Source of the DNA: Spongiibacteraceae bacterium
GTDB taxonomy: Bacteria; Pseudomonadota; Gammaproteobacteria; Pseudomonadales; CAMLJR01
DNA: 25,773 bases
Direction of reading: 5' to 3'
Assembly (NCBI GenBank): GCA_040508685.1
Contig: JBEVMI010000337.1
Location: forward strand, 1 to 25,773
Part shown: positions 7,542 to 25,176 of the stretch, piece after piece
Position numbering within the stretch: the stretch's first letter is position 1
Layout: each line of letters starts with the position of its first letter
Notes under the pieces: model-generated
The model's database searches: none
What the model was told of the DNA's origin: nothing
The model's input: the letters and a program-made list of their open reading frames with translations, nothing else
Made by a program: the position numbers and the translations under genes

Positions 7542-8237
7542 ATGACGCGTTTTGCCCTCTCGTTGCTGACTCTGGGCGTACTGGCCGGTTGCCAGACCGC
7601 GTCGCCACCGCCGGCGCCGATCTGCCCGCCGCCGCCGCCCGTGCAATGCCCGGAGCCGTTGGTGCCGGCGGCGTATGTGCCGTTTGAGCAGAGCTGCCCG
7701 CCCATACCTGCGTGCCCGCCGATGTCGATCAAGGTTGATACACCGCTGAAATCTGCCGAGGTCCGGCTCAGTGAGATGCGTATGCTCGATGGAAAAATCC
7801 TGGTGGGCGAAGCCGAGTACGTAACCATACAGCCCGGCAATCTGCGGCTTGACGCGCGTATCGACAGCGGCGCTACCACCACCTCGATGCACGCCACCGA
7901 TATCAAATCGTTTGAGCGCGACGGTCAGCGTTGGGTGCGGTTCACCACCGAAACCGGCCGTGGCGGCGAAACCACACTGGAGCTGCCGCGTGTACGCCAT
8001 GTCCGCATCAAAGGTGAAGGCGACGAGTACGAACGGCGCCCGGTAGTGATGATCGATATACAAATCGGTGGGCTGAGACAAAAAGTGGAGGCCACACTGA
8101 CGGATCGCGACAATTATCATTTTCCGCTGCTGATCGGCCGCAACTTTCTGCGTGATCACGCCATCGTCGATGTCAGTCGCAAATATGTGCAGGGTGGAAA
8201 AGGCGGCGCCGGTAAACCGGACCCTGGCAAAAAATGA
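7542..8237 (+). CDS. Lipoprotein, retropepsin-like aspartic protease of the RimK-associated 'ATP-dependent zinc protease' family
   Basis: Lipobox LAGC, Pro/Cys-rich linker, GEAEYV, ARIDSGATTTS catalytic motif, TLTDRDNYHFPLLIGRNFL. SD AGGAG upstream. Confidence 0.88.
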   Translation: MTRFALSLLTLGVLAGCQTASPPPAPICPPPPPVQCPEPLVPAAYVPFEQSCPPIPACPPMSIKVDTPLKSAEVRLSEMRMLDGKILVGEAEYVTIQPGNLRLDARIDSGATTTSMHATDIKSFERDGQRWVRFTTETGRGGETTLELPRVRHVRIKGEGDEYERRPVVMIDIQIGGLRQKVEATLTDRDNYHFPLLIGRNFLRDHAIVDVSRKYVQGGKGGAGKPDPGKK

Positions 8238-8293
8238 CCAGCCTTTCTTTTAAACAAACGGATTTCGCTTAAACAGATTTCGGATAAACACAT

Positions 8294-9847
8294 ATGTCGC
8301 CGCGCGCACAGGTTTTTATCATTGCATTTTTGCTGATCGCCGCCGGCGTCGGCCTGTGCGCGTACAAATCAACGGTGTTGGGTTTTCCGTTGATGCCTGG
8401 CGAATATCGCAAGGTGTGGACGATCGAAGCCAAGGTCGAATTCGACGCCGAAGGCGGCCCGGCGACAGCGTCGCTGGCGCTACCGCGCGTGCAGAAACAT
8501 ATGCGCATCCTTGGCGAAAATTTCAGCGCTGCCGGTTACGGTTTTGAAATCGACGAAAGCGAAGGCGACTATCGCGCGGTGTGGTCGAAGCGCGAAGCCC
8601 ACGGCCTGCAACATCTGTTTTACAAGCTGTCCGTCTATCGCCGCGATCACAGCTCCAGCAAAAGCGGCACGTTGCCGGAGCCGGCTGTCGATCGCGGGCA
8701 GGCCGAAGAATTGCAGCAGACACCGGCGCATTCGGCGATGCTGAGTCTGGTCGAAAACGCACACCAGCTCTCTGCGGACAATCGCGGTTTTGTCGAGCAA
8801 CTGGCGAAGATAATCAATGACACCAATAATGCCGACGCCGTGATGCTGCTCGATTACAGCCGCGAAAAATCGCGCGCATCCGTCATGGTGGATCTGCTGA
8901 CGATCGCAAATTTACCCGCGCATCTGATTCGCGGGCTGTATCTGGAAAGCGAGCGCAAGGCCGTGCAGCCACAGGAGCTGGTCGAAACCTACATCGACGG
9001 CCTGTGGCAGATATTCGATCCCGTCACCGGGGTGTCGGGGCTGCCCGACAATTTTTTCATGTGGCAGCGCGGGGGCCTGTCGCTGCTGGACGTTACCGGC
9101 GGCAGCAACTCCAGCGTTACGTTCAGCATGATCGGCAATAATATTTCGGCGCGTTCGGTGGCTTTGCAGCAAGGCACCAAAGTCGATCAGAGCAAACGCG
9201 AAGCGGTGGCGTTACTCGATTTTTCGATCTACACGCTGCCCATCGAACAGCAGAATATCTTCAAGCTGATCCTGCTGGTGCCGGTCGGTACGCTCGCGGT
9301 CATTCTGCTGCGTGTGCTGGTCGGTTTGCGCACGACGGGCACGTTTATGCCGGTGCTGCTGGCGCTGGCGTTTATTCAAACGCAGTTAATTACCGGGCTG
9401 ACCATTTTTCTGCTGATTCTGGTGCTGGGACTCGGCATTCGCTCCTATCTCAGTCGGCTCAATCTATTGTTGGTATCGCGCATCGCCGCAGTGGTGATCG
9501 TGGTGGTGATGATGATGGCGTTCATCAGTGTCATCAGTTACAAACTCGGCATCGATCAGGCGCTGACCGTCACCTTCTTTCCCATGATCATCCTGGCGTG
9601 GACCATCGAACGCATGTCGATTCTGTGGGAGGAGAGCGGTGCCCGCGAAGTCGTCATCCAGGTTATCGGTACCCTGGTGGTCGCGTCGCTGGCGTTTGCG
9701 CTGATGACCAATCCGTTCATCGAACACTGGACCTTTAATTTTCCCGAGCTGACCTTGTGTTTGCTCGGTTGCGTGCTGCTGCTGGGACAATATTCCGGCT
9801 ATCGCCTCAGCGAGTTGATGCGGTTCCGCCATCTGGAGGGCATCTGA
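8294..9847 (+). CDS. Inactive transglutaminase fused to a 7TM domain
   Basis: N-terminal TM, VWTIEAKVEF, W.IFDP transglutaminase-like strand with no catalytic Cys visible, and C-terminal TM region GLRTTGTFMPVL...FFPMIILAWTIERMSILWEE. Confidence 0.85.
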   Translation: MSPRAQVFIIAFLLIAAGVGLCAYKSTVLGFPLMPGEYRKVWTIEAKVEFDAEGGPATASLALPRVQKHMRILGENFSAAGYGFEIDESEGDYRAVWSKREAHGLQHLFYKLSVYRRDHSSSKSGTLPEPAVDRGQAEELQQTPAHSAMLSLVENAHQLSADNRGFVEQLAKIINDTNNADAVMLLDYSREKSRASVMVDLLTIANLPAHLIRGLYLESERKAVQPQELVETYIDGLWQIFDPVTGVSGLPDNFFMWQRGGLSLLDVTGGSNSSVTFSMIGNNISARSVALQQGTKVDQSKREAVALLDFSIYTLPIEQQNIFKLILLVPVGTLAVILLRVLVGLRTTGTFMPVLLALAFIQTQLITGLTIFLLILVLGLGIRSYLSRLNLLLVSRIAAVVIVVVMMMAFISVISYKLGIDQALTVTFFPMIILAWTIERMSILWEESGAREVVIQVIGTLVVASLAFALMTNPFIEHWTFNFPELTLCLLGCVLLLGQYSGYRLSELMRFRHLEGI

Positions 9848-9848
9848 A

Positions 9849-10856
9849 ATGAATGTGGCCGAAATGTTCTTCGGACATTTCAAACGTGCATTTATCCAAC
9901 CCGGCAAGCTGCGCGATCTCGGCATTCTCGGCATGAACGGGCGCAACGTAAATTACATCGCACGCTACAACCCGCGTCATTTGTATCCGCTGGTCGACAA
10001 TAAACTCAAAACCAAAAAGGCGGCGCATAAGGCGGGTATCGCGACGCCGAAACTGATCGGTTATGTCGAAAGCCTCGGCGAAATCGAGCGGCTGCTGCAC
10101 CGCCTGCAACCGATGAGCGACTTTGTGATCAAGCCGACCCGCGGCTCCGGTGGCAAGGGCATCGTCGTTATTTCGGCGCGCGACGGCGAACTGTTCGTCA
10201 AACCCAGTGGCGCAAAATTAACCGCGCTGGATATCCGTCGTCATATCAGCGACATCATGAGCGGTCTCTACAGTCTCGGCGGCAAACCCGATTCGGTGAT
10301 GATCGAAACGCGTGTCGATTTCGATCCGGTATTCAACGACTACAGCTTCGAAGGTGTGCCGGATATTCGCGTCATCGTGTTTCGCGGGTTTCCGGTGATG
10401 GCGATGTTGCGCTGTTCCACGCACAGCTCCGACGGGCGCGCCAACCTGCATCAGGGTGCCGTCGGTGTTGGTATCGACCTGCGCTCCGGCCGCAGCATTC
10501 ACGCGGTGCAACGCAATAATCCGGTGCGGGTGCATCCGGATACACAAAAGCCGTTCAGCGAACTGCGTGTCCCCAACTGGGAAAAATTGTTGTTGCTCGC
10601 GGCGCAATGCCACGACATGACCGCGCTCGGTTATATCGGCTGCGATATTGTCATCGACAAAAATCTCGGCCCACTGATTCTCGAATTGAATGCGCGGCCG
10701 GGCCTTTCAATTCAGGTCGCCAACGGCGCCGGTTTGTTGCCGCGACTGCAAGCGATTGAAGCGCTCGGCGAAGATGAACTGGCGTGGCCCGCGGAAAAAC
10801 GCGTCGAATATTCGCGCAGCCTGTTTGGACATGCGCGGCCGGTGCGGGTGATGTGA
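9849..10856 (+). CDS. Alpha-L-glutamate ligase-like ATP-grasp protein
   Basis: GILGMNGRN, VDNKLKTK, FVIKPTRGSGGKGI, GVPDIRVIV, ANLHQGAVGVGID, LELNARPGLSIQ. It starts 1 nt after the 7TM gene stop. Confidence 0.9.
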   Translation: MNVAEMFFGHFKRAFIQPGKLRDLGILGMNGRNVNYIARYNPRHLYPLVDNKLKTKKAAHKAGIATPKLIGYVESLGEIERLLHRLQPMSDFVIKPTRGSGGKGIVVISARDGELFVKPSGAKLTALDIRRHISDIMSGLYSLGGKPDSVMIETRVDFDPVFNDYSFEGVPDIRVIVFRGFPVMAMLRCSTHSSDGRANLHQGAVGVGIDLRSGRSIHAVQRNNPVRVHPDTQKPFSELRVPNWEKLLLLAAQCHDMTALGYIGCDIVIDKNLGPLILELNARPGLSIQVANGAGLLPRLQAIEALGEDELAWPAEKRVEYSRSLFGHARPVRVM

Positions 10857-12494: not shown

Positions 12495-14102
12495 ATGACC
12501 CTCCATGCCGAACACCTACAGATCAATGATGCGCTGATTCTGGAGGCGACCCGCCTACTGGCGAGCCCATTGCCCCCCGAGCAGAAACTTACCGCGCTGC
12601 TGCGCCTGCTATCGGAGTGGGCGCATCTGCACTGCGGTCGTGTGTTGATGCCCAACTATGCCACCGGCGAACTCCAGGTGGCATTCTCTTATGGCTTGAA
12701 TCGCGGACGGCTGCAGCGCGGCGAATATTCGGTGCCATTCAATCAGGGCCTCACCGGCGCCGTGTGGCGCACCGGTCAGTTGGCGCTGGTCACCGATGTC
12801 ATGGACGAGCCCATTTTCCTGACCCGAATCGCCGAGCCGCTCAATGGCAAAAAGGCCGGTGTCGGATTTATTTCGGCGCCGATTCTGGTCGAAGGCAAAC
12901 CCATCGGTGTGTTATCGGTGCAGCGTCGTGCCGACGAGAGTCGCCTGTACTCGCAGGATGTCGATTTGCTGCGCGTGATCTCCAGCATGATGACATCAGT
13001 ATTGATGTTACTCGAACAGCGCGGGCAGCTATTCGCCGCAGTACCCGAGGGCAGCAACGACAGCGAGATCGAGCGCCTGCACCAGTTGTGCAAAACCTAC
13101 GGCATCATCGGCCACAGCCCGTCGTTGCTGGCCGCGGTCAAACAAATCGACAACGCGAAATTTTCCGACGCGCCGATTCTATTGCTGGGTGAATCCGGTA
13201 CCGGCAAGGAAATGTTTGCGCAGATGGTGCATCGCCTCAGTGCGCGCAGCAATGGTCCATACATCCCGCTCAACTGCGCAGCGATTCCGGAGCAACTGCT
13301 TGAGTCCGAATTATTTGGTCACGAGAAAGGCAGTTTCACCGGCGCGCACCGCAACAAAAAAGGCAAGCTGCAGCAGGCCAATGACGGTACGTTATTCCTC
13401 GATGAGATCGGCGACCTGCAACTCGATTTACAGGTGAAACTGCTGCGCGTATTGCAGGATCGCCAGGTCGAGCCGGTGGGCGGCGACAAACCCGTCAACG
13501 TGAATTTCCGCATTATCACCGCGACCCATATCAATCTGAAAAAGGCGATCGAAACCGGTCGCTTCCGTCTCGATCTATTCTTCCGCCTGAATGTCGTGCC
13601 GATTTACCTGCCACCATTGCGCGAACGCACCGGCGACATTCCGCTGCTGGTCGATTTTTTCCTGCAGCGTTATCAGGGCATGTATCGCCGCAATCTAAAT
13701 ATGGGCGCGGGCACCATGGATCGGTTGTGTCACTACCCGTGGCCGGGCAACATTCGCCAATTGCAGAATGTTATCGAGCGCGCGGTGCTGCAGGTCGAAG
13801 GCCCGTGGATCAGCGATCGCCAGATCGAACAAATTTTGACGGACGAGGGTGGTTTCCCGCTGGGCACGGTTGAAGCGACCGAAGTGAATCGACCGATGCC
13901 GGATATCCTTCCCGTTTCTGCACCGGTGCCCGCACCGGCAGAGGCGCCGCGTTACCGTCCCTATACCCGTGTCGAACACGGCCAACGCCAGCATATCGAA
14001 CACGCCCTGAAACAGACGGGCGGCAATCAAACCCAGGCAGCGGCATTGCTGGGATTAACCCTGCGGCAACTGCGTTATCGATTGATGAAACTGGCGGATT
14101 GA
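12495..14102 (+). CDS. NifA-like sigma54-dependent activator (GAF-AAA+-HTH)
   Basis: N-terminal GAF domain, GESGTGKE, LNCAAIPEQLLESELFGHEKGSFTGA, FLDEIGDL, WPGNIRQLQNVIER, Fis-type HTH GGNQTQAAALLGLTLRQLRYRL. Confidence 0.92.
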   Translation: MTLHAEHLQINDALILEATRLLASPLPPEQKLTALLRLLSEWAHLHCGRVLMPNYATGELQVAFSYGLNRGRLQRGEYSVPFNQGLTGAVWRTGQLALVTDVMDEPIFLTRIAEPLNGKKAGVGFISAPILVEGKPIGVLSVQRRADESRLYSQDVDLLRVISSMMTSVLMLLEQRGQLFAAVPEGSNDSEIERLHQLCKTYGIIGHSPSLLAAVKQIDNAKFSDAPILLLGESGTGKEMFAQMVHRLSARSNGPYIPLNCAAIPEQLLESELFGHEKGSFTGAHRNKKGKLQQANDGTLFLDEIGDLQLDLQVKLLRVLQDRQVEPVGGDKPVNVNFRIITATHINLKKAIETGRFRLDLFFRLNVVPIYLPPLRERTGDIPLLVDFFLQRYQGMYRRNLNMGAGTMDRLCHYPWPGNIRQLQNVIERAVLQVEGPWISDRQIEQILTDEGGFPLGTVEATEVNRPMPDILPVSAPVPAPAEAPRYRPYTRVEHGQRQHIEHALKQTGGNQTQAAALLGLTLRQLRYRLMKLAD

Positions 14103-14139: not shown

Positions 14140-14829
14140 TTAAACCGACAGATACGCCGTAATTTTTTTCGCGTCCACATCCTGCCGCATATCTTCGTGG
14201 ACGAAACGTCCGCGTTCGATGACGAACAATCGATCGGCCACTTCCAGCGTAAAACTCAACACCTGCTCCGATACGATGATGGTGATGTCGCGCATCTTGC
14301 GCAGTTCATTCAGTGCCTTCGCAATATCCTTGATGATCGATGGTTGAATGCCTTCGGTCGGTTCGTCGAGCAACAACACTTTCGGATCGGAGGCGAGTGC
14401 ACGTGCAATCGCAAGTTGTTGCTGCTGGCCGCCGGAGAGGTTGCCGCCTTTGCGTTTGCGCATGTCCCACAGCACCGGAAACAGCGCGTAGATGTCGTCC
14501 GAAATTTTCTTCTCCTTGGCGGTCTCTAATCCGGTCTCGATATTTTCAAGCACCGTCAATGTCGAAAAAATCTGCCGCCCCTGCGGCACGAAAGCAACGC
14601 CGTTGGCGACACGCTTGAAGCTGGGCATGCCGCCGATCTCGGTTTCGCCTACCTTGACACTGCCGTGGCGGCTGGGAATGACGCCCATCAGCGATTTGAA
14701 CAGCGTGGTTTTGCCCATGCCATTGCGGCCCATGATCGCAATCGTTTCCTTCGGTTTTACGCTGAAGGAAATATCGTGAATGATTTCGCTCTGGCCGTAG
14801 TTCACACAGAAATTTTCTACGTTCAGCAT
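14140..14829 (-). CDS. urtE: Urea/short-chain amide ABC transporter ATP-binding subunit UrtE
   Basis: GRNGMGKTT, VPQGRQIF, LSGGQQQQLAIARAL, LLDEPTEGIQPSII. Confidence 0.93.
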   Translation of the reverse strand: MLNVENFCVNYGQSEIIHDISFSVKPKETIAIMGRNGMGKTTLFKSLMGVIPSRHGSVKVGETEIGGMPSFKRVANGVAFVPQGRQIFSTLTVLENIETGLETAKEKKISDDIYALFPVLWDMRKRKGGNLSGGQQQQLAIARALASDPKVLLLDEPTEGIQPSIIKDIAKALNELRKMRDITIIVSEQVLSFTLEVADRLFVIERGRFVHEDMRQDVDAKKITAYLSV

Positions 14830-14904
14830 GATGGCGCCTAACCTCTTGAATGCTCGTCAATGAATGTCGTGCGTGGCCGCGTGATCGATCGACGGACCGC
14901 GTTA

Positions 14905-15693
14905 TTAATGACCGAGGTACACCTCGATCACTTTCGGATCTTTTTGTACCGCTTCCATCGAACCTTCTTTCAGAATTTTGCCCTGGTGCAACACGGTGAC
15001 GCGGTGGGCGATGTTTTTGACGAATTCCATATCGTGTTCGATCACGATCACCGAGCGGTTTTTGCAGATACGTTTCAGCAGCTCGCCGGTGAGTTCGCGC
15101 TCGCGTGCGCTCATGCCGGCGACGGGTTCGTCGAGCATCAGCAACTCGGGGTCCTGAATCAGCAACATGCCGATTTCCAGCCATTGTTTCTGGCCGTGGC
15201 TGAGCAGGCCGGCTTCCGTGCTGAGCAGCTCGTCGAGCATGATTTCCTTGGCAACTTCATTCACGCGCGCAATCACTTCGGCGGTGCGTTTGAACGCCAG
15301 TGCACCAAAAACGGTACGGCCTTTGGGAAACGAAATCTCCAGATTCTCGAACACCGTCAGATTTTCGTAGATCGACGGATTCTGGAATTTACGGCCCACA
15401 CCCGCCTGCACGATTTTATGCTCGGACATCTTGGTCAATTCCTTGTCCTTGAATTTGATGCTGCCGCTGGTCGCCTTGGTTTTGCCGCAGATCAAATCCA
15501 GCACCGTGGTTTTACCGGCGCCGTTGGGACCGATCACGACGCGAATTTCATTCTTGTCGATGTACAGGTTGAGATCGTCGACCGCCTTGAAGCCATCGAA
15601 CGAAACGGTGAGTCCTTCGACCGTCAGCACGAAGTCCCGCTGTAGCGATTTGGTACCGATAAAATCATTGGCAGAGATCGGGGGGGTAGCCAT
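14905..15693 (-). CDS. urtD: Urea/short-chain amide ABC transporter ATP-binding subunit UrtD
   Basis: GPNGAGKTT, GRKFQNPSIYENL, LSHGQKQWLEIGMLL, LDEPVAGM, IEHDM, VIEVYLGH. Confidence 0.93.
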   Translation of the reverse strand: MATPPISANDFIGTKSLQRDFVLTVEGLTVSFDGFKAVDDLNLYIDKNEIRVVIGPNGAGKTTVLDLICGKTKATSGSIKFKDKELTKMSEHKIVQAGVGRKFQNPSIYENLTVFENLEISFPKGRTVFGALAFKRTAEVIARVNEVAKEIMLDELLSTEAGLLSHGQKQWLEIGMLLIQDPELLMLDEPVAGMSARERELTGELLKRICKNRSVIVIEHDMEFVKNIAHRVTVLHQGKILKEGSMEAVQKDPKVIEVYLGH

Positions 15694-15726
15694 GGTCGTT
15701 TACTCTGTTAAGACTAATCGGGTCAG

Positions 15727-16956
15727 TCAGGCCGAAGGGGTGGAGGGCATAATGCGGGAGGGCAGGTCTTTGTCTGGCTCCACTTTTTCAACGGGCTTGC
15801 TGGGGGCGCTCGGCGCCGATGGCGGCGGTGTCGACTTGCCGGCTTTCGCTGCACGCCAGGCCAGGAACTTCGGTTTGACGGTTCCGCTGTAAACCCCGGC
15901 GAGACCATTGGGGAACCCCATCACCACGCCGATGAACAGGACACCCATGAAGATCAGCCACAAGGTCGGGAAACTCTCGGAAAAATAGGTCTTGCCGAAG
16001 TTGACCAGCAGCGTCCCGTACACCGCACCGATGAGCGACATGCGCCCGCCCACGGCGGCATAAATCACCATCTCGATCGACGGAATGATGCCGACGAAGG
16101 AGGGCGACATGAAACCTACCTGCAGCGTGAACATCGCACCGCCGATGGCGGAGATGACGGCGCTGGCGACGAAGATGAATACCTTGAAGTTGGCGACGTC
16201 ATAACCCGAGAAACGGACGCGATCCTCGCGATCGCGCATCGCCAGCATTAGCTTGCCGAGTTTGGAGGCGATGATGGCGCGGCCGACCAGAATTGCAGCC
16301 ACCAGCAATCCGCCGTTGATGTAGTACAAGATGTATTTCGCGCTGTCGGTGCGAATATCCCAGCCCAGCAGCGTGCGCAGATCGGTCATGCCGTTGATGC
16401 CGCCGGTGTAACCCTGTTGGCCGACGATGAGGATGGTAAGAATGGAGGCGACGGCCTGCGTCATGATCGAGAAGTACACGCCGGCAACGCGGCGTTTGAA
16501 CATCGCGACGCCGAGGATGTACGCGAAAATTCCTGCCACGGCCGTCACTGCAATCACGGTGAAGGTGAAGCTGTGAAAGGGCTGCCAGAACCAGGGCAGT
16601 TCGGTAATCTGGTTCCAGTCCATGAAATCCGGAATGCCGGGGGTCGACTGGATTTTGGTGTTCTCGGGATTGGATGCTTCGAGTTTCAGAAACATCGCCA
16701 TGCAATAACCGCCGAGCCCGAAGAAAATGCCCTGGCCCAGGCTGAGAATGCCGCCGTAACCCCAGCACAACACCAGCCCCACTGCGACGAACGCGTAAGT
16801 GAGATATTTGCCGACCAGGTTGAGCCGGAAAATATCCATGCTCAGCGGCATTACGATAAAAATAATCGCGGCGAGGATCGCTAAATTAATTGCTCCCTCG
16901 CGCCCACCCAGCCATTTGCCGAGAACTGAATTCATCGCCAACCTCTCTTGCTTCAT
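15727..16956 (-). CDS. urtC: Urea/short-chain amide ABC transporter permease UrtC
   Basis: WGYGGILSLGQGIFFGLGGY, TPGIPDFMDWN, GVYFSIMTQA, RDREDRVRFSGY. SD GGAGG before ATG 16956; ATG 16935 is an alternative start. Confidence 0.9.
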   Translation of the reverse strand: MKQERLAMNSVLGKWLGGREGAINLAILAAIIFIVMPLSMDIFRLNLVGKYLTYAFVAVGLVLCWGYGGILSLGQGIFFGLGGYCMAMFLKLEASNPENTKIQSTPGIPDFMDWNQITELPWFWQPFHSFTFTVIAVTAVAGIFAYILGVAMFKRRVAGVYFSIMTQAVASILTILIVGQQGYTGGINGMTDLRTLLGWDIRTDSAKYILYYINGGLLVAAILVGRAIIASKLGKLMLAMRDREDRVRFSGYDVANFKVFIFVASAVISAIGGAMFTLQVGFMSPSFVGIIPSIEMVIYAAVGGRMSLIGAVYGTLLVNFGKTYFSESFPTLWLIFMGVLFIGVVMGFPNGLAGVYSGTVKPKFLAWRAAKAGKSTPPPSAPSAPSKPVEKVEPDKDLPSRIMPSTPSA

Positions 16957-17019
16957 TAAGACCTCCCCTCCCCGGCAGGAAGAGGGGACTAGCGAACACC
17001 GTGATCCAAACAATGCGAT

Positions 17020-17940
17020 CTATTTGCGCACACGAATGTTGAACAGACCTTCCGGGCGCGCCATCAGGATGCCGACCACGGCCACCAGCGTGATGACTTT
17101 CGCCATCGAACCGCTGAGGAAGAAGCCGAGAATCGATTGCGCCTGGGCGATCGAGAACGCCGATGCGAACGTGCCGATCAGGCTGCCTGCGCCGCCGAAC
17201 ACGACGACGAGGAAGGTATCGACGATGTACTGCGAACCGCTGGTCGGGCCGGTGGATGCGATCGTGGTGAACGCTGCACCTGCCACGCCGGCAATGCCGC
17301 AGCCGAGCGCGAAAGTCATGCGGTCAACCTTGCCGGTATCGATGCCGACGGCGCCAGCCATTGCCCGATTCTGCGTAGTCGCGCGCACTTTCAAGCCCCA
17401 GCGCGAACGCTGCAGGAAAAAGAACACGGCGCCGGAGAGCACGATGGTGAGGCCCAGCACGAACAGGCCGTTGATCGGAATATCGAGGCCTTCGCGCAAT
17501 GTCCACGATCCCATCAGCCAGTCCGGCAGCACCGCGCTGACTTCACGCGCACCGAATGCCGAGCGGAAAATCTGTTGCATGATCAGGCTCAGGCCCCAGG
17601 TCGCCAGCAGCGTGTCGAGTGGACGTTTGTATAAATATCGGATAATAAAAAACTCGACGAGCCATCCAACCGCAAAGGCGATGAGAAAGGCGGCGATGAC
17701 GGCGAGAAAAAAGTAGCCGTTGAGCAGCACGGGAAATTTTTCCGCGAGCATCGACATGGCGACGGTGCTGTAGGCACCGATCGTAAGAAATTCGCCGTGG
17801 GCCATATTGATGACGCCCATCTGGCCGAAAATAATGGCCAGTCCCAGCGCCATCAACACGAATACCGAAAACAGACTGATGCCGGCGAAGGCCTGCATCG
17901 AAAAATTATCGATTAATTCTGCGGCTGAGTAACCGTCCAT
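17020..17940 (-). CDS. urtB: Urea/short-chain amide ABC transporter permease UrtB
   Basis: LGLAIIFGQMGVINMAHGEF, LYKRPLDTLLATWG, TFALGCGIAGVAG, VDTFLVVVFGG. Confidence 0.92.
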   Translation of the reverse strand: MDGYSAAELIDNFSMQAFAGISLFSVFVLMALGLAIIFGQMGVINMAHGEFLTIGAYSTVAMSMLAEKFPVLLNGYFFLAVIAAFLIAFAVGWLVEFFIIRYLYKRPLDTLLATWGLSLIMQQIFRSAFGAREVSAVLPDWLMGSWTLREGLDIPINGLFVLGLTIVLSGAVFFFLQRSRWGLKVRATTQNRAMAGAVGIDTGKVDRMTFALGCGIAGVAGAAFTTIASTGPTSGSQYIVDTFLVVVFGGAGSLIGTFASAFSIAQAQSILGFFLSGSMAKVITLVAVVGILMARPEGLFNIRVRK

Positions 17941-18010
17941 CTTTAATTCCTCTGGCAGCTACGGTGGTTCCAAAAATATTGCGAAATTTCAAACAGCTCA
18001 GATTGAGCGG

Positions 18011-18104
18011 GTGTCGGGGTTCTCTTGCGGAAACCGTAGGAACAGGATGTTTCTACGGAGTCTCAGGGATGAGGGATGCGTTTTCCGCAAGAGAACCCCG
18101 ATGC
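18011..18104 (-). repeat. Structured palindromic intergenic repeat, copy 2 (between urtA and urtB)
   Basis: Perfect 20-bp inverted repeat 18014-18033/18082-18101 and inner stem 18034-18044/18048-18058. Homologous to 502-625 in the opposite orientation. Confidence 0.85.
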
Positions 18105-18141
18105 CTGCGAGGCAACACCAACGCAGGCGTCGACTAAACAA

Positions 18142-19425
18142 TCACTGATAACCTTTCGGGAACGGGTTCGGCTCGATCAGATCAGACTCGAAAACCACTT
18201 TCGCCTGACCATCCTTTTGCCATACCGCGATACGCGCCTTGCTCCACAGGTGATGATTTTCGTGGAGTTTCACGTAACCTTCCGGTGCGGTTTTCAGTTC
18301 GAGGCCGGGCGATGCAGCTACCACTTTATCCACATCGAAGCTGCCCGCTTTCTCGACAGCTGCTTTCCACAACCACGGACCGAGATAGCCGGCCTGGGTC
18401 ACGTCGCCGATCACGCTGTCAGCACCGTATTTCGCTTTGAACGCAGCAACGAATGCCTTGTTGTTGGCGTTGTCGAGCGACTCGAAATATTTCATCGAGG
18501 AATACAGGCCTTCAACGTTGGCACCACCGATACCCAGAACTTCGTCCTCGGTTACGGAAATGGTCAACATCGGCTGTTTCTTGAAGGTGAGGCCGGCGGC
18601 ATTCAATTGCTTGAACCACGCCACGTTGGAGCCACCGACCACGGCGCCGAATACGAGATCAGGTTTTTTCAACTTGATCTTGTTGATCAGCGAACTGAAC
18701 TGCGTGCTGCCGAGCGGATAATATTCTTCGCCGACCACAGTGCCTTTCAGAACGTTTTCGATGTGTTTGCGGGCAATCTTCATCGACGTGCGCGGCCAGA
18801 TGTAATCCGAGCCCACCAGATAGAAGGATTTGGCACCGAGCGTTTTGCTGGCCCAGTCGAGACTGGCGAGAATTTGTTGCGTGGCTTCCTGGCCGGTGTA
18901 GAAAACGTTCTTCGACTGTTCGAGACCTTCATAGAACGTCGGATAGTAGAGCAGGCCGTTTTTCTGCTCGAAGATTGGCAGCACCGCTTTGCGTGATGCC
19001 GAGGTCCAGCAGCCGAATACTGCGGCGACTTTATCTTTCTCCAGAAGTTTTTTCGATTTCTCAGCAAAGGTTGGCCAATCGGATGCACCGTCTTCCTGAA
19101 TCACTTCGATTTTGCGACCAAGGATACCGCCCATCGCATTGATTTGATCGATGGCGAGTTTTTCTGCTTCCACGGCACCGGTCTCGCTGATCGCCATGGT
19201 GCCGGTGATCGAATGCAAAATACCGACGGTGACTGTTTTATCGGTGACCGCGAGACCCGTGGTCATTACTTTTGACGTTGGCAAATCGGCAGCAAAAGCT
19301 CCACCTATCGCACCGAATGTCAGCGAAGCGCCCAACATCAGCGCCGACCACAGCGCGCGACGTCGATGCTTTCGTTGAATCGAGTGGCCTTGAGTTGAAA
19401 GGGAATGATTTTTTTCTAAACGCAT
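18142..19425 (-). CDS. urtA: Urea/short-chain amide ABC transporter substrate-binding protein UrtA
   Basis: VGILHSITGTMAISE, EDGASDWPTFAEK, FGCWTSASRKAVLP, YPTFYEGLEQS, LVGSDYIWPRTS. SD GGAGG before ATG 19425; signal peptide present. Confidence 0.93.
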   Translation of the reverse strand: MRLEKNHSLSTQGHSIQRKHRRRALWSALMLGASLTFGAIGGAFAADLPTSKVMTTGLAVTDKTVTVGILHSITGTMAISETGAVEAEKLAIDQINAMGGILGRKIEVIQEDGASDWPTFAEKSKKLLEKDKVAAVFGCWTSASRKAVLPIFEQKNGLLYYPTFYEGLEQSKNVFYTGQEATQQILASLDWASKTLGAKSFYLVGSDYIWPRTSMKIARKHIENVLKGTVVGEEYYPLGSTQFSSLINKIKLKKPDLVFGAVVGGSNVAWFKQLNAAGLTFKKQPMLTISVTEDEVLGIGGANVEGLYSSMKYFESLDNANNKAFVAAFKAKYGADSVIGDVTQAGYLGPWLWKAAVEKAGSFDVDKVVAASPGLELKTAPEGYVKLHENHHLWSKARIAVWQKDGQAKVVFESDLIEPNPFPKGYQ

Positions 19426-19515
19426 TGTTGCTTCCTCCACCAGAGAAACGGCCTTGAGACGAAAATTAAACGTCCATCGCAATAGCAGCGCGTTGATGCG
19501 CTCTGATTCTGTAAG

Positions 19516-19832: not shown

Positions 19833-19883
19833 CTTCTCCCCGACATAAACATCCCATTGACCGCTGTCGCGAGGAACATGGAA

Positions 19884-21119
19884 ATGACGGAAACGCTAAT
19901 CAAAGTTGATCTGAAGAAACCGGCTACCGAGCAACCCTGCATCCACAACCGCTGGCATCCGGATATTCCGATGGTGGCGTGGGTGAAGCCGGGTGCGGAT
20001 TTTGTCGTCGAATGTGTGGACTGGACCGGCGGCCAGATCGGCTACAACGATTCCGCGGATGACGTGCGCGACGTCGACCTGACCAAGGTGCATTATCTTT
20101 CCGGTCCGATTGGTGTCGAAGGTGCCGAGCCCGGCGACCTGCTGGTGGTCGACATCATGGATATCGGCACGCTACCGACTTCCGAATGGGGTTTCACCGG
20201 TTTATTCGCGAAGGAAAATGGCGGTGGTTTTCTCACCGAACATTTTCCCGATGCCCACAAGGCGGTGTGGGATTTGAAGGGGATCTACGCCACTTCGCCA
20301 CAAATTCCGAACTGCAGTTTTGCCGGCATCATGCATCCGGGGCTGATCGGTTGCCTGCCGTCGAAAGCGTTGCTCGATACCTGGAACAAACGCGAAGCCG
20401 CATTGATTGCGACCGATCCCAACCGCGTGCCGCCGCTGGCCGCACCGCCGTGCGCCGACACCGCGCACATGGGTGCGATGAAACCGGAAGCCGCGAAAAT
20501 TGCGGCGCTGGAAGGTGCGCGCACCGTGCCGCCGCGCGAACACGGTGGCAACTGCGACATCAAGGATCTGACGCGCGGCTCCAAGGTATATTTCCCGGTG
20601 TATGTGAATGGCGGCGGCCTGTCGATGGGCGACCTGCACTTCTCGCAGGGCGACGGTGAAATCACTTTCTGCGGCGCCATCGAAATGGCCGGCTGGATTC
20701 ACATCAAGGTCGACATCATCAAAGGTGGGGTCGCCAAATACGGTGTGAAGAATCCAATTTTCAAACCAAGCTCACTCAAGCCCAATTATCAAAACTATCT
20801 GATCTTCGAGGGCATCTCGGTCGACGAATCCGGCAAGCAGTATTACCTCGACGTGCATGTGGCCTATCGCCAGGCCTGTCTCAACGCCATCGAATACATG
20901 AAAAAATTCGGTTACAGCGGTGCGCAGGCGTACACCATTCTCGGCACCGCGCCGGTGCAGGGACATATCAGCGGCATCGTCGATATTCCGAATGCGTGCG
21001 CGACGTTGATGCTGCCGACTGAAATTTTCGATTTCGACATGATGCCGAACAAGGATGGCCCTATCAAACACGTCACCGGCGGTATCGATATTCCGGTTTC
21101 TTACTGGAAGGACAAATAG
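19884..21119 (+). CDS. fmdA: Formamidase (acetamidase/formamidase family)
   Basis: HNRWHPDIP, VHYLSGPIGVEGAEPGDLL, PPREHGGNCDIK, GDLHFSQGDGEITFCGAIEM, VDIPNACATL. SD GAGGA 8 nt before ATG 19884. Confidence 0.93.
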   Translation: MTETLIKVDLKKPATEQPCIHNRWHPDIPMVAWVKPGADFVVECVDWTGGQIGYNDSADDVRDVDLTKVHYLSGPIGVEGAEPGDLLVVDIMDIGTLPTSEWGFTGLFAKENGGGFLTEHFPDAHKAVWDLKGIYATSPQIPNCSFAGIMHPGLIGCLPSKALLDTWNKREAALIATDPNRVPPLAAPPCADTAHMGAMKPEAAKIAALEGARTVPPREHGGNCDIKDLTRGSKVYFPVYVNGGGLSMGDLHFSQGDGEITFCGAIEMAGWIHIKVDIIKGGVAKYGVKNPIFKPSSLKPNYQNYLIFEGISVDESGKQYYLDVHVAYRQACLNAIEYMKKFGYSGAQAYTILGTAPVQGHISGIVDIPNACATLMLPTEIFDFDMMPNKDGPIKHVTGGIDIPVSYWKDK

Positions 21120-21151
21120 TTTTTTTGGGGAAAAGCTCGTTACGAGTGTTC

Positions 21152-21194
21152 GCAGGCCGATTGACAAGGCAGCGTTGATCGGCCTGCATTTTTT
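21152..21194 (+). terminator. Intrinsic terminator-like hairpin between fmdA and fmdB
   Basis: 10-bp perfect stem GCAGGCCGAT/ATCGGCCTGC, extendable with G-U pairs, followed by ATTTTTT. Confidence 0.55.
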
Positions 21195-21235
21195 ATCCCA
21201 AATCTATTTCAGTGATTTCATAGGAGGATTCCGTC

Positions 21236-21559
21236 ATGCCGGTCTATGACTTTCGCTGCAGCGAATGCAGCGGTGAATTCAGCGAATTGCGACCAATGGC
21301 ACGCAGTGGCGAACCGTCGACGTGCCCCGACTGTGAGGGTTACGCACCGCGTCTGATCAGTGCGCCCCGGCTGGCGGTACTGACAACGACACAGCGCAAG
21401 GCGCATCAGGTCAACGAACGCAGCGCGCATGAGCCGCGCGCGATGAAGAAACATGTCTGCAGTTCCGGCTGCTCGCACGGGCCTGCGAAAGGCGAGGAAA
21501 CGAAGACTGGATTACGACAATCCAAATCCACCAGCCGTCCCTGGATGATCGGACATTAA
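21236..21559 (+). CDS. fmdB: FmdB-family zinc-ribbon protein
   Basis: MPVYDFRCSEC...TCPDC...RLISAP, AHQVNERSAHEP, HVCSSGCSH. Lies downstream of fmdA; SD AGGAGG. Confidence 0.88.
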   Translation: MPVYDFRCSECSGEFSELRPMARSGEPSTCPDCEGYAPRLISAPRLAVLTTTQRKAHQVNERSAHEPRAMKKHVCSSGCSHGPAKGEETKTGLRQSKSTSRPWMIGH

Positions 21560-21562
21560 TAT

Positions 21563-21674
21563 CTCCCCCTGCGAAGTAGGGGGAGTGCCCGCAGGGCGAG
21601 GGGGTCAGGTGTGATGAGCTTGATGACCCCTCCGTCTCGCTATCGCGAGCCACCTCCCCTACTTCGCAGGGGAG
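21563..21674. repeat. Palindromic double-hairpin intergenic element (REP/RIME-like)
   Basis: Left arm CTCCCCCTGCGAAGTAGGGGGAG (21563-85) and right arm CTCCCCTACTTCGCAGGGGAG (21654-74) are each hairpins and are near-perfect reverse complements. Internal GAGGGGGTCA/TGACCCCTC pair. Confidence 0.8.
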
Positions 21675-21699
21675 GCAAAACCAACGAGAGAACGCGATC

Positions 21700-22737
21700 A
21701 TGATGCATGGCGATATTTCCAGTAGCAAAGACACCGTCGGCGTCGCCGTCGTCAACTACAAAATGCCGCGACTGCACACCAAGGCCGAGGTGCTCGACAA
21801 CGCGCGCAAAATCGCCGATATGCTGATCGGCATGAAAAGCGGTTTGCCCGGCATGGATCTGGTGATCTTTCCGGAATACAGCACGCACGGCATCATGTAC
21901 GACGCCAAGGAGATGTACGACACCGCGGCGGCCGTACCCGGTGAGGAAACCGAAATTTTCGCGGCCGCGTGCCGCAAAGCCAAAGTGTGGGGCGTATTTT
22001 CGCTGACCGGCGAACGCCACGAAGAACATCCCAACAAGGCGCCCTACAACACGCTGATCCTGATGAACGATCAGGGTGAGATCGTACAGAAATACCGCAA
22101 GATCATGCCGTGGGTGCCGATCGAAGGCTGGTATCCGGGCAACTGCACTTATGTATCCGACGGTCCGAAAGGCCTGAAAATCAGCCTGATTATTTGCGAC
22201 GACGGCAACTACCCGGAAATCTGGCGCGACTGTGCCATGAAAGGCGCAGAGCTGATCGTGCGCTGTCAGGGTTATATGTATCCGGCAAAAGATCAGCAGG
22301 TGTTGATGGCGAAGGCGATGGCCTGGGCCAATAACAGTTATGTCGCAGTCGCCAACGCCGCGGGTTTTGATGGCGTCTATTCGTATTTTGGCCACTCGGC
22401 GATTATCGGATTCGATGGCCGCACGCTCGGCGAATGTGGTGAAGAAGATTACGGCATTCAATACGCCGCGTTATCGAAATCGTTGATTCGCGACGCGCGC
22501 AAAAACATGCAGTCGGAAAATCATTTATTCAAACTGCTGCACCGCGGTTACACCGGCATGATCAATTCGGGCGACGACGTGCGCGGTGTCGCGGCGTGCC
22601 CGTACGATTTTTATCGCAGCTGGATCGAAGACCCGGAAGGCACCCGCGCCAAAGTCGAAGCCATGACGCGGTCGAGTGTCGGCACCGATGAATGCCCGAT
22701 CGAGGGAATACCGACCGAGGCGCCCGCTCATCGTTGA
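21700..22737 (+). CDS. amiE: Aliphatic amidase (nitrilase superfamily)
   Basis: [25 protein letters not shown]. Catalytic triad in FPEYS, YRKIMPW and ICDDGNYPE. Closely resembles Pseudomonas AmiE. Confidence 0.95.
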
Positions 22738-22756
22738 GCGGGCGAGGGGGGATTTG

Positions 22757-23557
22757 GTGAATTCTCTCAGTGAATACCTGATCGCCGACGAGCCGCACTA
22801 CTATGCCACCGGCAGCGAGATTGCCGTCTTCGAACAGGCCCATCGCGAAAAATTGCCATTGATGTTGAAAGGCCCGACCGGCTGCGGCAAAACGCGGTTT
22901 GTCGAATACATGGCGTGGCGCTTGCAGCGACCGCTGATTACGATTGCGTGTCACGAAGACATGACCGCGGCCGATCTGGTCGGTCGCCATTTGCTAAACA
23001 ACGACGGTACGCACTGGCAGGACGGCCCGCTGACGCGTGCAACACGAGCCGGTGCGATTTGTTATCTCGATGAAATCGTCGAGGCACATCAGGATACGGT
23101 GGTGGTCATTCATCCGCTGACCGATGCGCGGCGTCTGTTACCGCTTGAACGCAATAATGAACTGGTGCATGCGCATCCCGATTTTCAGTTGGTGGTTTCC
23201 TACAATCCCGGTTATCAGCATTTCGCCAAACAACTGAAGGAATCAACCAAACAGCGTTTTGTCGCGCTCGATTTTCAATGGCCGGAACCGGCGGTGGAAG
23301 CGCAGATCATCGTCGCTGAGGCCGACGTTGATAACCATCTGGCGGAAACCCTGGTCACCCTCGCCGCGCATTCCCGCAATCTGGTGGGCAAGGGGCTCGC
23401 CGAAGGTTTTTCGACGCGCATGCTGATTCACGCCGCGCGGCTCGCACGCAATGGCCTCGGTTTGCGCGATGCCTGTTTGTCGGCGCTGATTTTGCCGATA
23501 ACCGATGACGTTACCTTGCGCGCCACGCTGCTGCAGCTGTTTGAAACCTGTCGCTGA
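22757..23557 (+). CDS. CbbQ/NirQ/NorQ-family MoxR-type AAA+ ATPase
   Basis: EPHY, LMLKGPTGCGKTRFVEYMAW, EDMTAADLVGR, DGPLT, CYLDEIVEA, HPLTD.RR, SYNPGYQ, STKQRF, STRML. GTG 22757 follows a G-rich SD. Confidence 0.92.
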   Translation: MNSLSEYLIADEPHYYATGSEIAVFEQAHREKLPLMLKGPTGCGKTRFVEYMAWRLQRPLITIACHEDMTAADLVGRHLLNNDGTHWQDGPLTRATRAGAICYLDEIVEAHQDTVVVIHPLTDARRLLPLERNNELVHAHPDFQLVVSYNPGYQHFAKQLKESTKQRFVALDFQWPEPAVEAQIIVAEADVDNHLAETLVTLAAHSRNLVGKGLAEGFSTRMLIHAARLARNGLGLRDACLSALILPITDDVTLRATLLQLFETCR

Positions 23558-25176
23558 TGAACGCCGAGACCGACCAAATCCAGCGCAGCGCGGAGCTCTG
23601 GTTTGCGGCATGGTTAGGTGAACGCGCGTCGTGTCAGTGGATCGATTGCCAAACGCCCGCGTCTGCCCGCGCATCGTTCGCGCAGAATAAATTCCGGTTG
23701 CCGCGCCATAATCCGGCGCATCACCGCGCCAGTGTCGCGCACTTTTATGCGCACGCACGATTCGGCGGTGCACCGTTCGCGGTCGGAAAATTTCGACCGA
23801 TTCAAATCGTACTGACTTCCCTTTTCGAGGATGCCCGCGTCGAGCAGCTCGTGTTGCGCGAACGACCGGGGTTGCGCCGTTTATGGGCGCCCTATATCGA
23901 CGCCCTCCATCTCCAGACGCGGACGAAGGAGAGCGACGATGTTGCGGCGCTGTTGCGTCGGCTGGCGGTAGCATTGTTCGATCCCGCCTGGCCGAACAAC
24001 AATCCGTGGGTCAATAAAGCGCGCCGACTTTTTTATGCGCGCGAATCGGAATGGCAGAATCCGGCGTTGAGTCGCGAGCTGGGCAATCTGCTCGGCAACG
24101 ACCTCGGCCAGATGCGGCTGCAATTCAACTGGAAAAGTTATGTCGTCGAACCCGCGTATCGCGACGATCATCGCGGCCTGTGGATTGACGACGACGAGCC
24201 ACCGCCGCTGGAAGAACAACAAGCCGGCATATGTCCCGACCGCGAGGCCACGCGCATTGCCGCGGCACCGATCGCGGGCGACACGTCGGCACGGCGCAGC
24301 GAAATCGGTGACTGGTTGATCGCCGGTGCAGCGCCGGTCCTCGCGCCGGCAACCTTGCCGGAGTGGGACTATGCCCGCCAGTTCTATCGCGCTGCGTGGG
24401 TCAGTGTGCGCGAGCAGGAGCCACCGCGGGAAGCGCCACCAGAGGCTGTCGCGCGACTGCTGGAAATGTCCGACGCGGCGCTACCGTCATATCGTGCGCG
24501 ACAACACGCTGCGAATAGGCGTCGCCATCGGCGCGGGCACGACGGCGATTCGCTCGACCTGGATGCCTGCATTCGCAATATCGCTGATCGTCGTCTCGGC
24601 CAGCATGCGGACATGCGAATTTATCGGCGCTTGATCGAGCAGGAGCAGCCGGGGTCGCTGCTGATTTTAATTGATACTTCGCTGTCGATGGGCGCGCCAC
24701 CGGCGCTAGCCACCATGGCCGACGCGACAGTGCGCGCCGATCCATCTGCACTGGACCATGCAAAAGTCGCCACGTTGCAGATGGTCGAACACACCACACG
24801 CAGCGGCAATCGTTGCGCCATCTATGGCTTTTGTTCGGACGGCCGGCACGCATTGCACATGGCGCCGGTCAAAAATTTTTCCGACAATTATTCGAGTTGG
24901 AAAATTCTTACGCGACTCGCCGGCCTCAGCGCAGCCTATTCCACACGTCTTGGCGGCGCGCTGCGTTACGCCAGAAAATTACTTGCTGATGAGCCCGCGG
25001 CTGCGCACGAAATTTTTGTGTTCACCGATGGTGAAGCCAGCGACATTGATACGGTTGATCCACGTTATTTGCGCGAGGATGCATGCCAGGCCGTGCACGA
25101 ACTACAGCGTGCGGGAATCGAAGTTGAGTTCATTAATGCCAGTGCCCCTGCGGGAATAAAATCGATAAAAATTTGA
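23557..25176 (+). CDS. CbbO/NorD-like von Willebrand factor A (MIDAS) adaptor protein
   Basis: FEDARVE, YRDD..LW, PEWDY, GDSLDLDA, MIDAS DTSLS...STRLG...TDG. TGATG overlap with the ATPase gene. Confidence 0.85.
   Translation: MNAETDQIQRSAELWFAAWLGERASCQWIDCQTPASARASFAQNKFRLPRHNPAHHRASVAHFYAHARFGGAPFAVGKFRPIQIVLTSLFEDARVEQLVLRERPGLRRLWAPYIDALHLQTRTKESDDVAALLRRLAVALFDPAWPNNNPWVNKARRLFYARESEWQNPALSRELGNLLGNDLGQMRLQFNWKSYVVEPAYRDDHRGLWIDDDEPPPLEEQQAGICPDREATRIAAAPIAGDTSARRSEIGDWLIAGAAPVLAPATLPEWDYARQFYRAAWVSVREQEPPREAPPEAVARLLEMSDAALPSYRARQHAANRRRHRRGHDGDSLDLDACIRNIADRRLGQHADMRIYRRLIEQEQPGSLLILIDTSLSMGAPPALATMADATVRADPSALDHAKVATLQMVEHTTRSGNRCAIYGFCSDGRHALHMAPVKNFSDNYSSWKILTRLAGLSAAYSTRLGGALRYARKLLADEPAAAHEIFVFTDGEASDIDTVDPRYLREDACQAVHELQRAGIEVEFINASAPAGIKSIKI

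Follow-up and report, generated by a model that had tools for sequence, protein, structure and literature searches.

The stretch of DNA analysed here (the window) comprises 25,773 nucleotides of contig JBEVMI010000337.1, from the draft genome of a Spongiibacteraceae bacterium (assembly GCA_040508685.1). Its forward strand carries a run of five consecutive genes: fmdA, fmdB, amiE, a gene for a 266-aa AAA+ ATPase and a gene for a 539-aa protein with a von Willebrand factor A-type (vWA) domain. The subject of this work is the last two – a motor and adaptor of the type that activates Rubisco (CbbQO) – and their association with the aliphatic amidase AmiE. Comparison of sequences across genomes indicates that the pair is probably an ATP-driven remodeller dedicated to AmiE, that is, a CbbQO-type machine with a different client. 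The features of amiE and the pair are as follows.

21700–22737, + strand: amiE, encoding a nitrilase-superfamily aliphatic amidase of 345 aa, proposed as the client (matches to NF009802, CN_hydrolase and 2plq)
22729–22734, + strand: last two codons of amiE, CAT CGT, encoding His-Arg, the proposed recognition tag (comparison of tails)
22738–22756, + strand: 19-nt spacer with the ribosome-binding stretch GAGGGGGGA (read from the sequence)
22757–23557, + strand: CbbQ-type MoxR AAA+ ATPase, 266 aa, GTG start at 22757, the motor (AAA_5 and CbbQ_C)
22871–22894, + strand: Walker A, GPTGCGKT (motif reading)
23069–23074, + strand: the Asp-Glu of Walker B in CYLDE, with EAHQD after it (motif reading)
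23557–25176, + strand: CbbO-like vWA adaptor, short form, 539 aa (VWA_2 and trees)
23740–23844, + strand: adaptor N-domain motif HxxxH…EDARVE, residues H62, H66 and E91–E96 (invariant in two alignments)
24196–24345, + strand: predicted disordered linker of the adaptor, residues 214–263 (predicted local distance difference test, pLDDT, <50)
24622–25173, + strand: vWA domain of the adaptor, residues 356–539 (invariant columns of the MIDAS, the adhesion site that depends on a metal ion, and Foldseek)
24673–24687, 24943–24945 and 25027–25029, + strand: MIDAS codons for D373/S375/S377, T463 and D491 respectively (invariant columns)

AmiE matches the equivalog-level NCBIfam model for aliphatic amidase (NF009802) with 725 bits, against a cut-off of 427, and CN_hydrolase with an E-value of 5e-49. 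Residues 1–341 match the solved amidases of G. pallidus and P. aeruginosa (656 bits to G. pallidus 2plq), and the catalytic motifs with Glu59, Lys134 and Cys166 are present. The gene ends with TGA at 22735–22737. Further downstream, the ATG of the adaptor gene at 23557 overlaps the TGA of the ATPase gene (TGATG), and translational coupling is intact.

The ATPase, with matches to AAA_5 (3.1e-35) and CbbQ_C (1.5e-25) in Pfam and a length of 266 aa, has the architecture of the CbbQ/NirQ/NorQ group of MoxR proteins. Walker A, Walker B, sensor 1, arginine finger and sensor 2 are intact: GPTGCGKT, CYLDE, SYNPGY, ESTKQRF and GFSTRML are all present, in columns conserved across 59 family members. Among solved structures the best scores are to CbbQ (361 bits to 5c3c and 355 bits to 6l1q), followed by NorQ (277–301 bits), while the match to AAA_2 (19.8 bits) falls below the cut-off, so the architecture of AmiB, the ATPase encoded behind amiE in P. 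aeruginosa-type operons, is not found. The closest 120 database relatives are 62–92% identical; the Joint Genome Institute (JGI) labels close homologues of the ATPase ‘NorQ’. An earlier note on this DNA had described the 19-nt gap between amiE and the ATPase gene, the TGATG coupling, the ATPase motifs, an intact MIDAS and the variant EAHQD, and each of these is borne out by the sequence; so is its statement that the window holds no cbbLS, cbbM or norCB gene, since domain searches of the window proteins found no Rubisco or nor gene. Across the draft genome, which is 77.6% complete, there is likewise no match to RuBisCO_large or NorB, and CbbQ_C matches a single protein.

To place the pair, 59 ATPase/adaptor pairs were labelled by their neighbours, with NorB, NorC, NorE, RbcL and RbcS identified by Pfam. 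Identity among the ATPases is 50–68% throughout the family. In the ATPase tree the amiE-linked rows lie in a polytomy, outside both the clade of Rubisco-linked ATPases (98/91) and the nor-linked one (92/89), and a single amiE-linked clade is not rejected by the approximately unbiased (AU) test (p 0.15–0.16). Because the deep order of this tree is not recovered, placement was based on the adaptor. The earlier note had also suggested that EAHQD, in place of EARQD, might define a subfamily. This did not survive comparison: seven of eight amiE-adjacent ATPases compared have EARQD, and His instead of Arg is scattered over other rows (besides the window, L002/L003 and two actinobacterial rows have it; L and G numbers are our handles for loci and genomes), so the variant marks nothing.

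The adaptor matches VWA_2 in Pfam (9e-10), and two alignments show no variation at its MIDAS residues (D373, S375, S377, T463 and D491). It aligns over 83–95% of its length with amiE-linked adaptors (35–42% identity) and, in BLASTP, over 83–88% with CbbO (28–31% identity) versus 36–51% with NorD. The NorD alignment is limited to residues ~262–529, the C-terminal half, and an N-domain of NorD type was not found. What the N-domain does contain is a motif consisting of HxxxH and, ~25 residues on, ED(A/S/C)RV(E/D). All eight amiE-adjacent adaptors carry this motif, as do L002/L003 and, within the Rubisco CbbO clade, 14 of 16 rows; none of the 21 NorD proteins has it, nor do the remaining clades.

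Phylogeny gives the same affiliation. In a 55-row adaptor tree the amiE-linked adaptors and CbbO form one group (100/99), apart from NorD (97/85), and seven of the eight amiE-linked rows together with L002 and L003 are the sister clade to CbbO (88/98). In a quick tree of 84 rows the superclade persists (96), as does the clade of Rubisco CbbO (100). Here, however, amiE- and urease-linked adaptors form a grade around Rubisco CbbO, with three urease-linked rows (L107, L108 and L134) as its sister group (100), and the AU test for one amiE-linked clade gives p 0.055 (reduced 49-row set, LG+G4). The monophyletic clade that the earlier note had named as a sign of support is thus recovered in the smaller tree and lost in the larger. 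The window adaptor falls outside the Rubisco-linked CbbO clade in both (100/99, and 100 in the 84-row tree). Whether sister clade or grade – the trees allow either – the amiE-linked adaptors, and with them the pair, group with CbbO without falling inside the Rubisco clade. An AlphaFold2 model of the adaptor (pLDDT 78 overall, ~90 for the vWA fold) predicts a helical N-domain, the disordered linker (residues 214–263), a β-hairpin and the vWA domain, in that order. The top Foldseek matches of the modelled vWA domain are the VWA domains of NorD in NorQD complexes (9qh6_G, 1e-17); a search of solved structures with the adaptor matched no CbbO sequence.

The link between the pair and amiE extends to other genomes. 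All of the first three long contigs looked up encode a CN_hydrolase protein (346 aa), then the ATPase, then the vWA protein, and the two nearest relatives share the order amiE–ATPase–vWA. In an even sample of 301 Pseudomonadota genomes, AmiE orthologues (at least 77% identity) occur in 20, and in five of these – the genome of the window and four others, from three families – the pair directly follows amiE. In one further genome, G136, an ATPase lies 4.4 kb downstream of amiE with RbcL between them, and is therefore a true CbbQ; at this locus (L025, G136:C10) an amiE ending in -EETA, and so lacking the proposed tag, stands ~3 kb upstream of cbbL (ending -SHR), cbbS, cbbQ and cbbO. A scan of contigs with the ATPase on its own gave six loci only, and the survey was instead based on the genome search together with a scan of metagenomes with the adaptor alignment. 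The latter gave 80 loci, of which 53 have enough upstream DNA to be assessed. The gene immediately before the ATPase is amiE in 45 of the 53, and in four more amiE is nearby (three at 1.2–2.6 kb upstream, one on the other strand). RbcL or NorB neighbours the pair in none of the 53, and RuBisCO_large is found in none of the 80. NorB, NorC and NorE flank 22 other pairs and no amiE-linked pair. The same order is also evident in the annotation of a Labrenzia plasmid (‘aliphatic amidase’, ‘CbbQ/NirQ/NorQ/GpvN family protein’, ‘VWA domain-containing protein’). By the earlier note, a link to amiE peculiar to this genome, with orthologues mainly beside cbb or nor genes, would have told against the idea; the link proves to be general, and amiE is the usual neighbour. 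By comparison, fmdA accompanies the pair in only four of ~65 pair-bearing loci, the window included, and it follows that amiE, not fmdA, is the constant partner.

A further line of evidence concerns AmiE itself. Between AmiEs with and without the pair, strong discrimination was confined to the final residues; nothing convincing was found to track the pair beyond positions 340–345. With every open reading frame (ORF) followed as far as its actual stop codon, AmiE ends in -His-Arg in 53 of the 54 cases in which it is directly followed by the pair, the exception being L073 (-His-Ser). Two further AmiEs with the -HR ending, those of L002 and L147, have the pair in the locus and not adjacent. In total, 55 of the 56 pair-bearing loci have the ending and none of the 15 pair-less ones does; AmiE in the latter ends in SNY, AAK, PDPH, EKTAG and the like. 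The switch is seen among close relatives (in genus g87, and when the f48 genomes are set beside their sisters from metagenomes). Independent contrasts between tail and pair number three on well-supported branches and five on all branches, and all point in the same direction.

This difference was found before the tails were compared with those of Rubisco. In Rubisco, a C-terminus of His followed by Lys or Arg (H-K/R) is found only in enzymes linked to cbbQO (Tsai et al. 2015, PMC4660213), where removal of one or two residues, or addition of a single Ala, abolishes both activation and stimulation of the ATPase; the penultimate His has partial substitutes in aromatic residues only, and the last position accepts other residues; the ATPase of CbbQO is stimulated by an 11-mer of the tail; and the MIDAS of CbbO binds an acidic residue on the surface of Rubisco (PMC4660213). 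In the loci surveyed here RbcL beside CbbQ ends in HK (10), HR (1) or HA (2), and no NorB protein in these loci has an H-K/R ending. Because the -HR ending matches the Rubisco rule, the pair-linked AmiE carries the client mark of the sister system, CbbQO.

The likeness to the Rubisco activases of Acidithiobacillus ferrooxidans (Q1O1/Q2O2) and Halothiobacillus (CsoCbbQO; PMC4660213) thus extends to a CbbQ-type motor of ~266 aa, a homologous adaptor N-domain with HxxxH…EDxRVE within one supported adaptor group, and a client-side tail of penultimate His plus Lys or Arg, the tagged neighbour here being AmiE. The differences are that the neighbour and presumed client is a hexamer of the nitrilase superfamily, that cbbLS or cbbM is not adjacent, and that all amiE-linked adaptors lie outside the Rubisco CbbO clade. 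In addition, CbbO has ~770 residues, ~550 of them before the vWA domain (PMC4660213), whereas the window adaptor has 539 and lacks both ends. NorQD, the chaperone that inserts FeB into cytochrome c nitric oxide (NO) reductase (Kahle et al. 2023, PMC9976466), shares with the pair the ATPase family, the order of ATPase and then vWA gene, and a NorD fold on which the vWA model superposes best (cryo-EM entries 9qh4–9qhg). Unlike NorQD, the pair has no norCB neighbours, only the C-terminal half of its adaptor aligns with NorD, NorD lacks the CbbO motif, and NorQ and NorD fall in clades of their own (92/89 and 97/85). As far as we know AmiE, whose fold is that of the Cys-Glu-Lys nitrilases, holds no metal cofactor that could be inserted, unlike the client of NorQD.

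An AAA+ ATPase directly behind amiE is also a feature of the P. aeruginosa-type operon, where the earlier note had named the next gene as amiB and its product as Clp-like. That description is correct: a complete operon of the order amiE-amiB-amiC-amiR-amiS in G303 (L159, G303:C1:1712000-1724000; the genus that holds G235) encodes an AmiB with AAA_2 (148 bits) and ClpB_D2-small (66 bits), without CbbQ_C and without a vWA partner, together with AmiR (AmiR_N plus ANTAR) and AmiS (AmiS_UreI family). AmiB resembles the window ATPase in the P-loop only (BLASTP E 0.002); two unrelated types of AAA+ ATPase have therefore come to stand behind amiE in different lineages. AmiEs on the AmiB-type branch of the tree lack the -HR tail. 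A further parallel is the ami operon of plasmid pYu-LOS15-16 of P. veronii Yu15, where a PF07728/PF08406 ATPase and a ‘NorD-like’ protein are described alongside amiE, amiC and amiR (Microorganisms 2026;14:1048, PMC13209695). The likeness is by description, and the adaptor called NorD-like there contrasts with the grouping with CbbO that trees and motif give here. Searches of the literature that paired CbbQ with amidase, or MoxR with aliphatic amidase, found nothing beyond this paper, and the papers listed on CbbQO or NorQD do not include any of those that name both CbbQ and an amidase. The amiE arrangement is thus already mentioned once in the literature; the phylogeny, the survey and the link to the tag are new here. 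Two other kinds of pair were observed: a further clade of CbbQ-like ATPases with vWA proteins of ~700 aa (100/99; L043–L047 and L049–L051, from G050, G094, G010, G162, G002, G078, G046 and G134), whose surroundings up to 7 kb contain no Rubisco, nor or amiE gene; and divergent pairs in metagenome-assembled genomes (MAGs) of Actinomycetota (L005, L007), in which a vWA gene of ~520 aa lies upstream of the ATPase gene, the reverse of the usual order.

How might such a machine act on AmiE? By analogy with CbbQO and NorQD, a ring-forming hexamer of the MoxR ATPase would carry one vWA adaptor. The MIDAS of the adaptor would bind an acidic residue on AmiE, as in CbbQO, the extreme C-terminal His-Arg of AmiE would dock in a pocket of the ATPase–adaptor complex, and ATP hydrolysis would loosen or remodel the amidase. 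The most likely purpose would be to reopen the buried active site of hexameric AmiE so that a dead-end ligand, or an adduct of the catalytic Cys, can leave; alternatively, the pair may help with AmiE assembly. The active sites of amidases are reached only via a narrow tunnel, and covalent adducts of the catalytic Cys have been trapped in crystals (PMC7616060). A complex prediction of adaptor and AmiE (paired alignments, without controls) scored 0.00, a result that tells on neither side of the question of binding.

In AmiE the dimer is interlocked by the long C-terminal arm, which also narrows the pocket, and urea acts on Pseudomonas amidase as a slow inhibitor directed at the active site. If both properties hold, pulling the arm to free a dead-end ligand would closely parallel the activation of Rubisco, and rescue would fit the frequent urea, urease and amide-transport neighbours of the pair. 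The earlier note's suggestion of a module that remodels or activates AmiE gains comparative support from the linkage to amiE, the CbbO-like adaptor and the client-type tail. An ‘amidase activase’ would be the most likely form of this role, because a CbbQO-type pair follows amiE and AmiE bears a Rubisco-type His-Arg tail; even so, we give the specific scenario of rescue from a dead end less than half the credence that we give to a remodeller of AmiE as such.

Several observations weigh against a remodeller dedicated to AmiE. Fifteen of the 20 sampled AmiE-bearing genomes lack the pair; G056, G048, G239, G230, G290 and G296 encode AmiE and no CbbQ-like ATPase anywhere at E ≤ 1e-20, and in genus g87 the pair is present in G257 and missing from three other species. 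On these distributions the pair is an accessory to AmiE, whose close orthologues work where no such ATPase is encoded, and any benefit would be conditional, because so many AmiE-bearing genomes do without it. The sign test for tail against pair gives p 0.25, the independent pairs being too few for significance. The account also supposes an inhibited state of AmiE in need of rescue, for which the states named here are candidates. The authors of the P. veronii study gave the arrangement a descriptive sentence and called the roles unclear (PMC13209695). To these are added four of the 53 assessable loci, in which urease genes take the place of amiE, and the condition of the adaptor in the window; each suggests a different account.

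The pair may serve urease, in maturation or reactivation of its nickel site, or the urea/amide nitrogen-scavenging locus as a whole, and not AmiE in particular. Urease genes flank it in L002, L003, L012, L080, L085, L091, L107, L108, L134, L149 and L153, and in L091, L107, L108, L134 and L003 there is no amiE in the locus; the whole MAG of L003 has no AmiE orthologue, only a 36%-identical AmiF-like protein without the tag. That the relative NorQD is a metal-insertion chaperone would favour a role at the nickel site. We nevertheless think a urease client improbable: amiE neighbours the pair in ~90% of loci, most of them without a urease gene; the genome of the window has no convincing urease alpha subunit (Pfam fragments of 24–26 bits only, and no protein match); loci with urease already hold the maturation set UreDEFG; and UreC near the pair ends -RYM[LF]R, with Leu or Phe, not His, before the last residue. 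This tail is a trait of the urease type, because it is found also in the pair-less genomes G230, G048 and G059. In the neighbourhoods of L107, L108, L134, L091, L003 and L002 no real gene encodes a protein ending in H-K/R. The earlier note had offered a second alternative client, the formamidase FmdA, for which the pair would be a metal-loading chaperone. Here too the insertion of iron into cytochrome c NO reductase by NorQD is a precedent, and fmdA and fmdB lie just upstream of the pair in L073, L024 and L142 as in the window; but the great majority of pair-bearing loci lack fmdA, clusters of urt-fmdA-fmdB-amiE exist without the pair (L013–L016, L018–L020, L027–L032), FmdA ends -WKDK and thus lacks the tag, and the adaptor is CbbO-like, not NorD-like. 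A metal-loading role for FmdA is therefore very unlikely. Finally, the pair could act on a Rubisco or NO reductase encoded elsewhere, its position behind amiE being incidental: the ‘NorQ’ label, the identity of 50–63% throughout the family and a genome that is only partly complete leave some room for this. Set against these are the draft genome without RuBisCO_large or NorB, Rubisco- and nor-linked pairs in clades that both exclude the window pair, and an amiE link that holds across dozens of unrelated contigs, and we consider this account the least credible of all.

The remaining account is that the pair is a decaying remnant in this genome, the adaptor being too truncated, even if the family acts on AmiE elsewhere. 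The window adaptor, at 539 aa, compares with 745–778 aa in most amiE-linked relatives: it lacks ~230 N-terminal and ~28 C-terminal residues, the latter kept in every other relative, has an insertion directly after the DxSxS motif, and is the most reduced copy seen. Terminal branches are long (0.9 for the ATPase and 1.1–1.2 for the adaptor). In the nearest relative, L073, whose ATPase is 84% identical to that of the window, the adaptor gene is split (L073 5687–6564) by a frame change into ORFs of 260 and 270 aa, and AmiE has the -HS tail noted above. The split is seen in two independent assemblies, one of them a Logan contig. However, the ratio of nonsynonymous to synonymous substitutions (dN/dS) relative to L073 (dS ~1) stays well below 1, at 0.11 in the ATPase and 0.31 in the adaptor's N part, compared with 0.016 for AmiE; the catalytic and MIDAS residues, the -HR tail of AmiE and the translational coupling are all retained; and short N-terminal forms of the adaptor recur in other lineages (L010, L023, L074, L112, L124, L140, L151). 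The split of L073 falls inside the predicted disordered linker, which makes it conceivable that the adaptor functions there as two chains. The window adaptor is short and fast-evolving, yet still under purifying selection, and for that reason we regard decay as unlikely, if less so than any of the other clients.

The urease loci provide two observations in their own right. One subtype of urease alpha subunit (L162–L164, L012, L085 and others) ends -RYMLR instead of the usual -RY(F/H)LF; its members are 76–88% identical to that of L012 and ~55–60% to the common type, and they are often found near amiE and the pair, as well as in pair-less genomes. A minority of CbbO-like pairs (L107, L108, L134, L091, L003, L002) has a urease-type order, ureC-ureG-ureD followed by the ATPase and adaptor genes.

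The genes upstream of the module in the window provide its context.

19857–21559, + strand: fmdA (19857–21119) and fmdB (21236–21559), outside the module (Pfam/NCBIfam)
14140–19482, − strand: urtEDCBA-type ABC transporter, divergent (TIGR03407, TIGR03409, ABC_tran, BPD_transp_2)
12495–14102: sigma-54 activator gene

FmdA matches FmdA_AmdA (1.6e-185) and NF045496, and FmdB is a zinc-ribbon protein; the substrate of the urt-type transporter is probably short amides or urea. Between fmdA and fmdB (21152–21187) lies a terminator-like hairpin of 14 pairs followed by a T-run, which may separate fmdA from transcription of fmdB, amiE and the pair, or may attenuate transcription. The 147-nt spacer between fmdB and amiE folds very strongly (21563–21675; −72.7 kcal/mol, z −4.95), with inverted arms of ~20 nt. 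A leader or attenuator was considered for this spacer and ruled out: the nearest relative, L073, lacks the fold, while the arms turn up again in this genome on contigs C320, C350 and, as an inverted pair, C122. The structure looks like a dispersed palindrome resembling repetitive extragenic palindromic (REP) sequences, and not like an amiE leader. Elsewhere in the window (7542–10856) three genes form a set with no relation to the amiE finding; they encode a putative zinc protease dependent on ATP (PF05618), a transglutaminase that is inactive and fused to seven transmembrane helices (PF14400/PF14402) and a RimK-like ATP-grasp protein (PF14397).

To our knowledge CbbQO is known for one client, Rubisco. 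A wider proposal, which we advance tentatively and hold to be possible rather than probable, is that the penultimate-His tail is a portable repair tag for CbbQO-type machines. AmiE would then be a second, unrelated client with dead-end states of its own (for instance Cys adducts or oxidation, or inhibitors that bind slowly, as urea does), from which the machine would rescue it by pulling on the C-terminal arm at the expense of ATP; and, judging from the 84-row adaptor tree rooted with NorD, the Rubisco activase clade may stem from an amidase- and urease-linked radiation. This would raise the question of the direction of descent: did the Rubisco activase arise from a helper in nitrogen scavenging? 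As a soluble homohexamer for which a colorimetric assay exists, AmiE would offer a simpler client for the study of force transmission by MoxR/vWA machines. The loss of activity of some amidases in biocatalysis and bioremediation could be explained in the same way. If the proposal is true, repair or activation of enzymes by recognition of the tail would be a general strategy, extended here to an amidase of the nitrilase superfamily.

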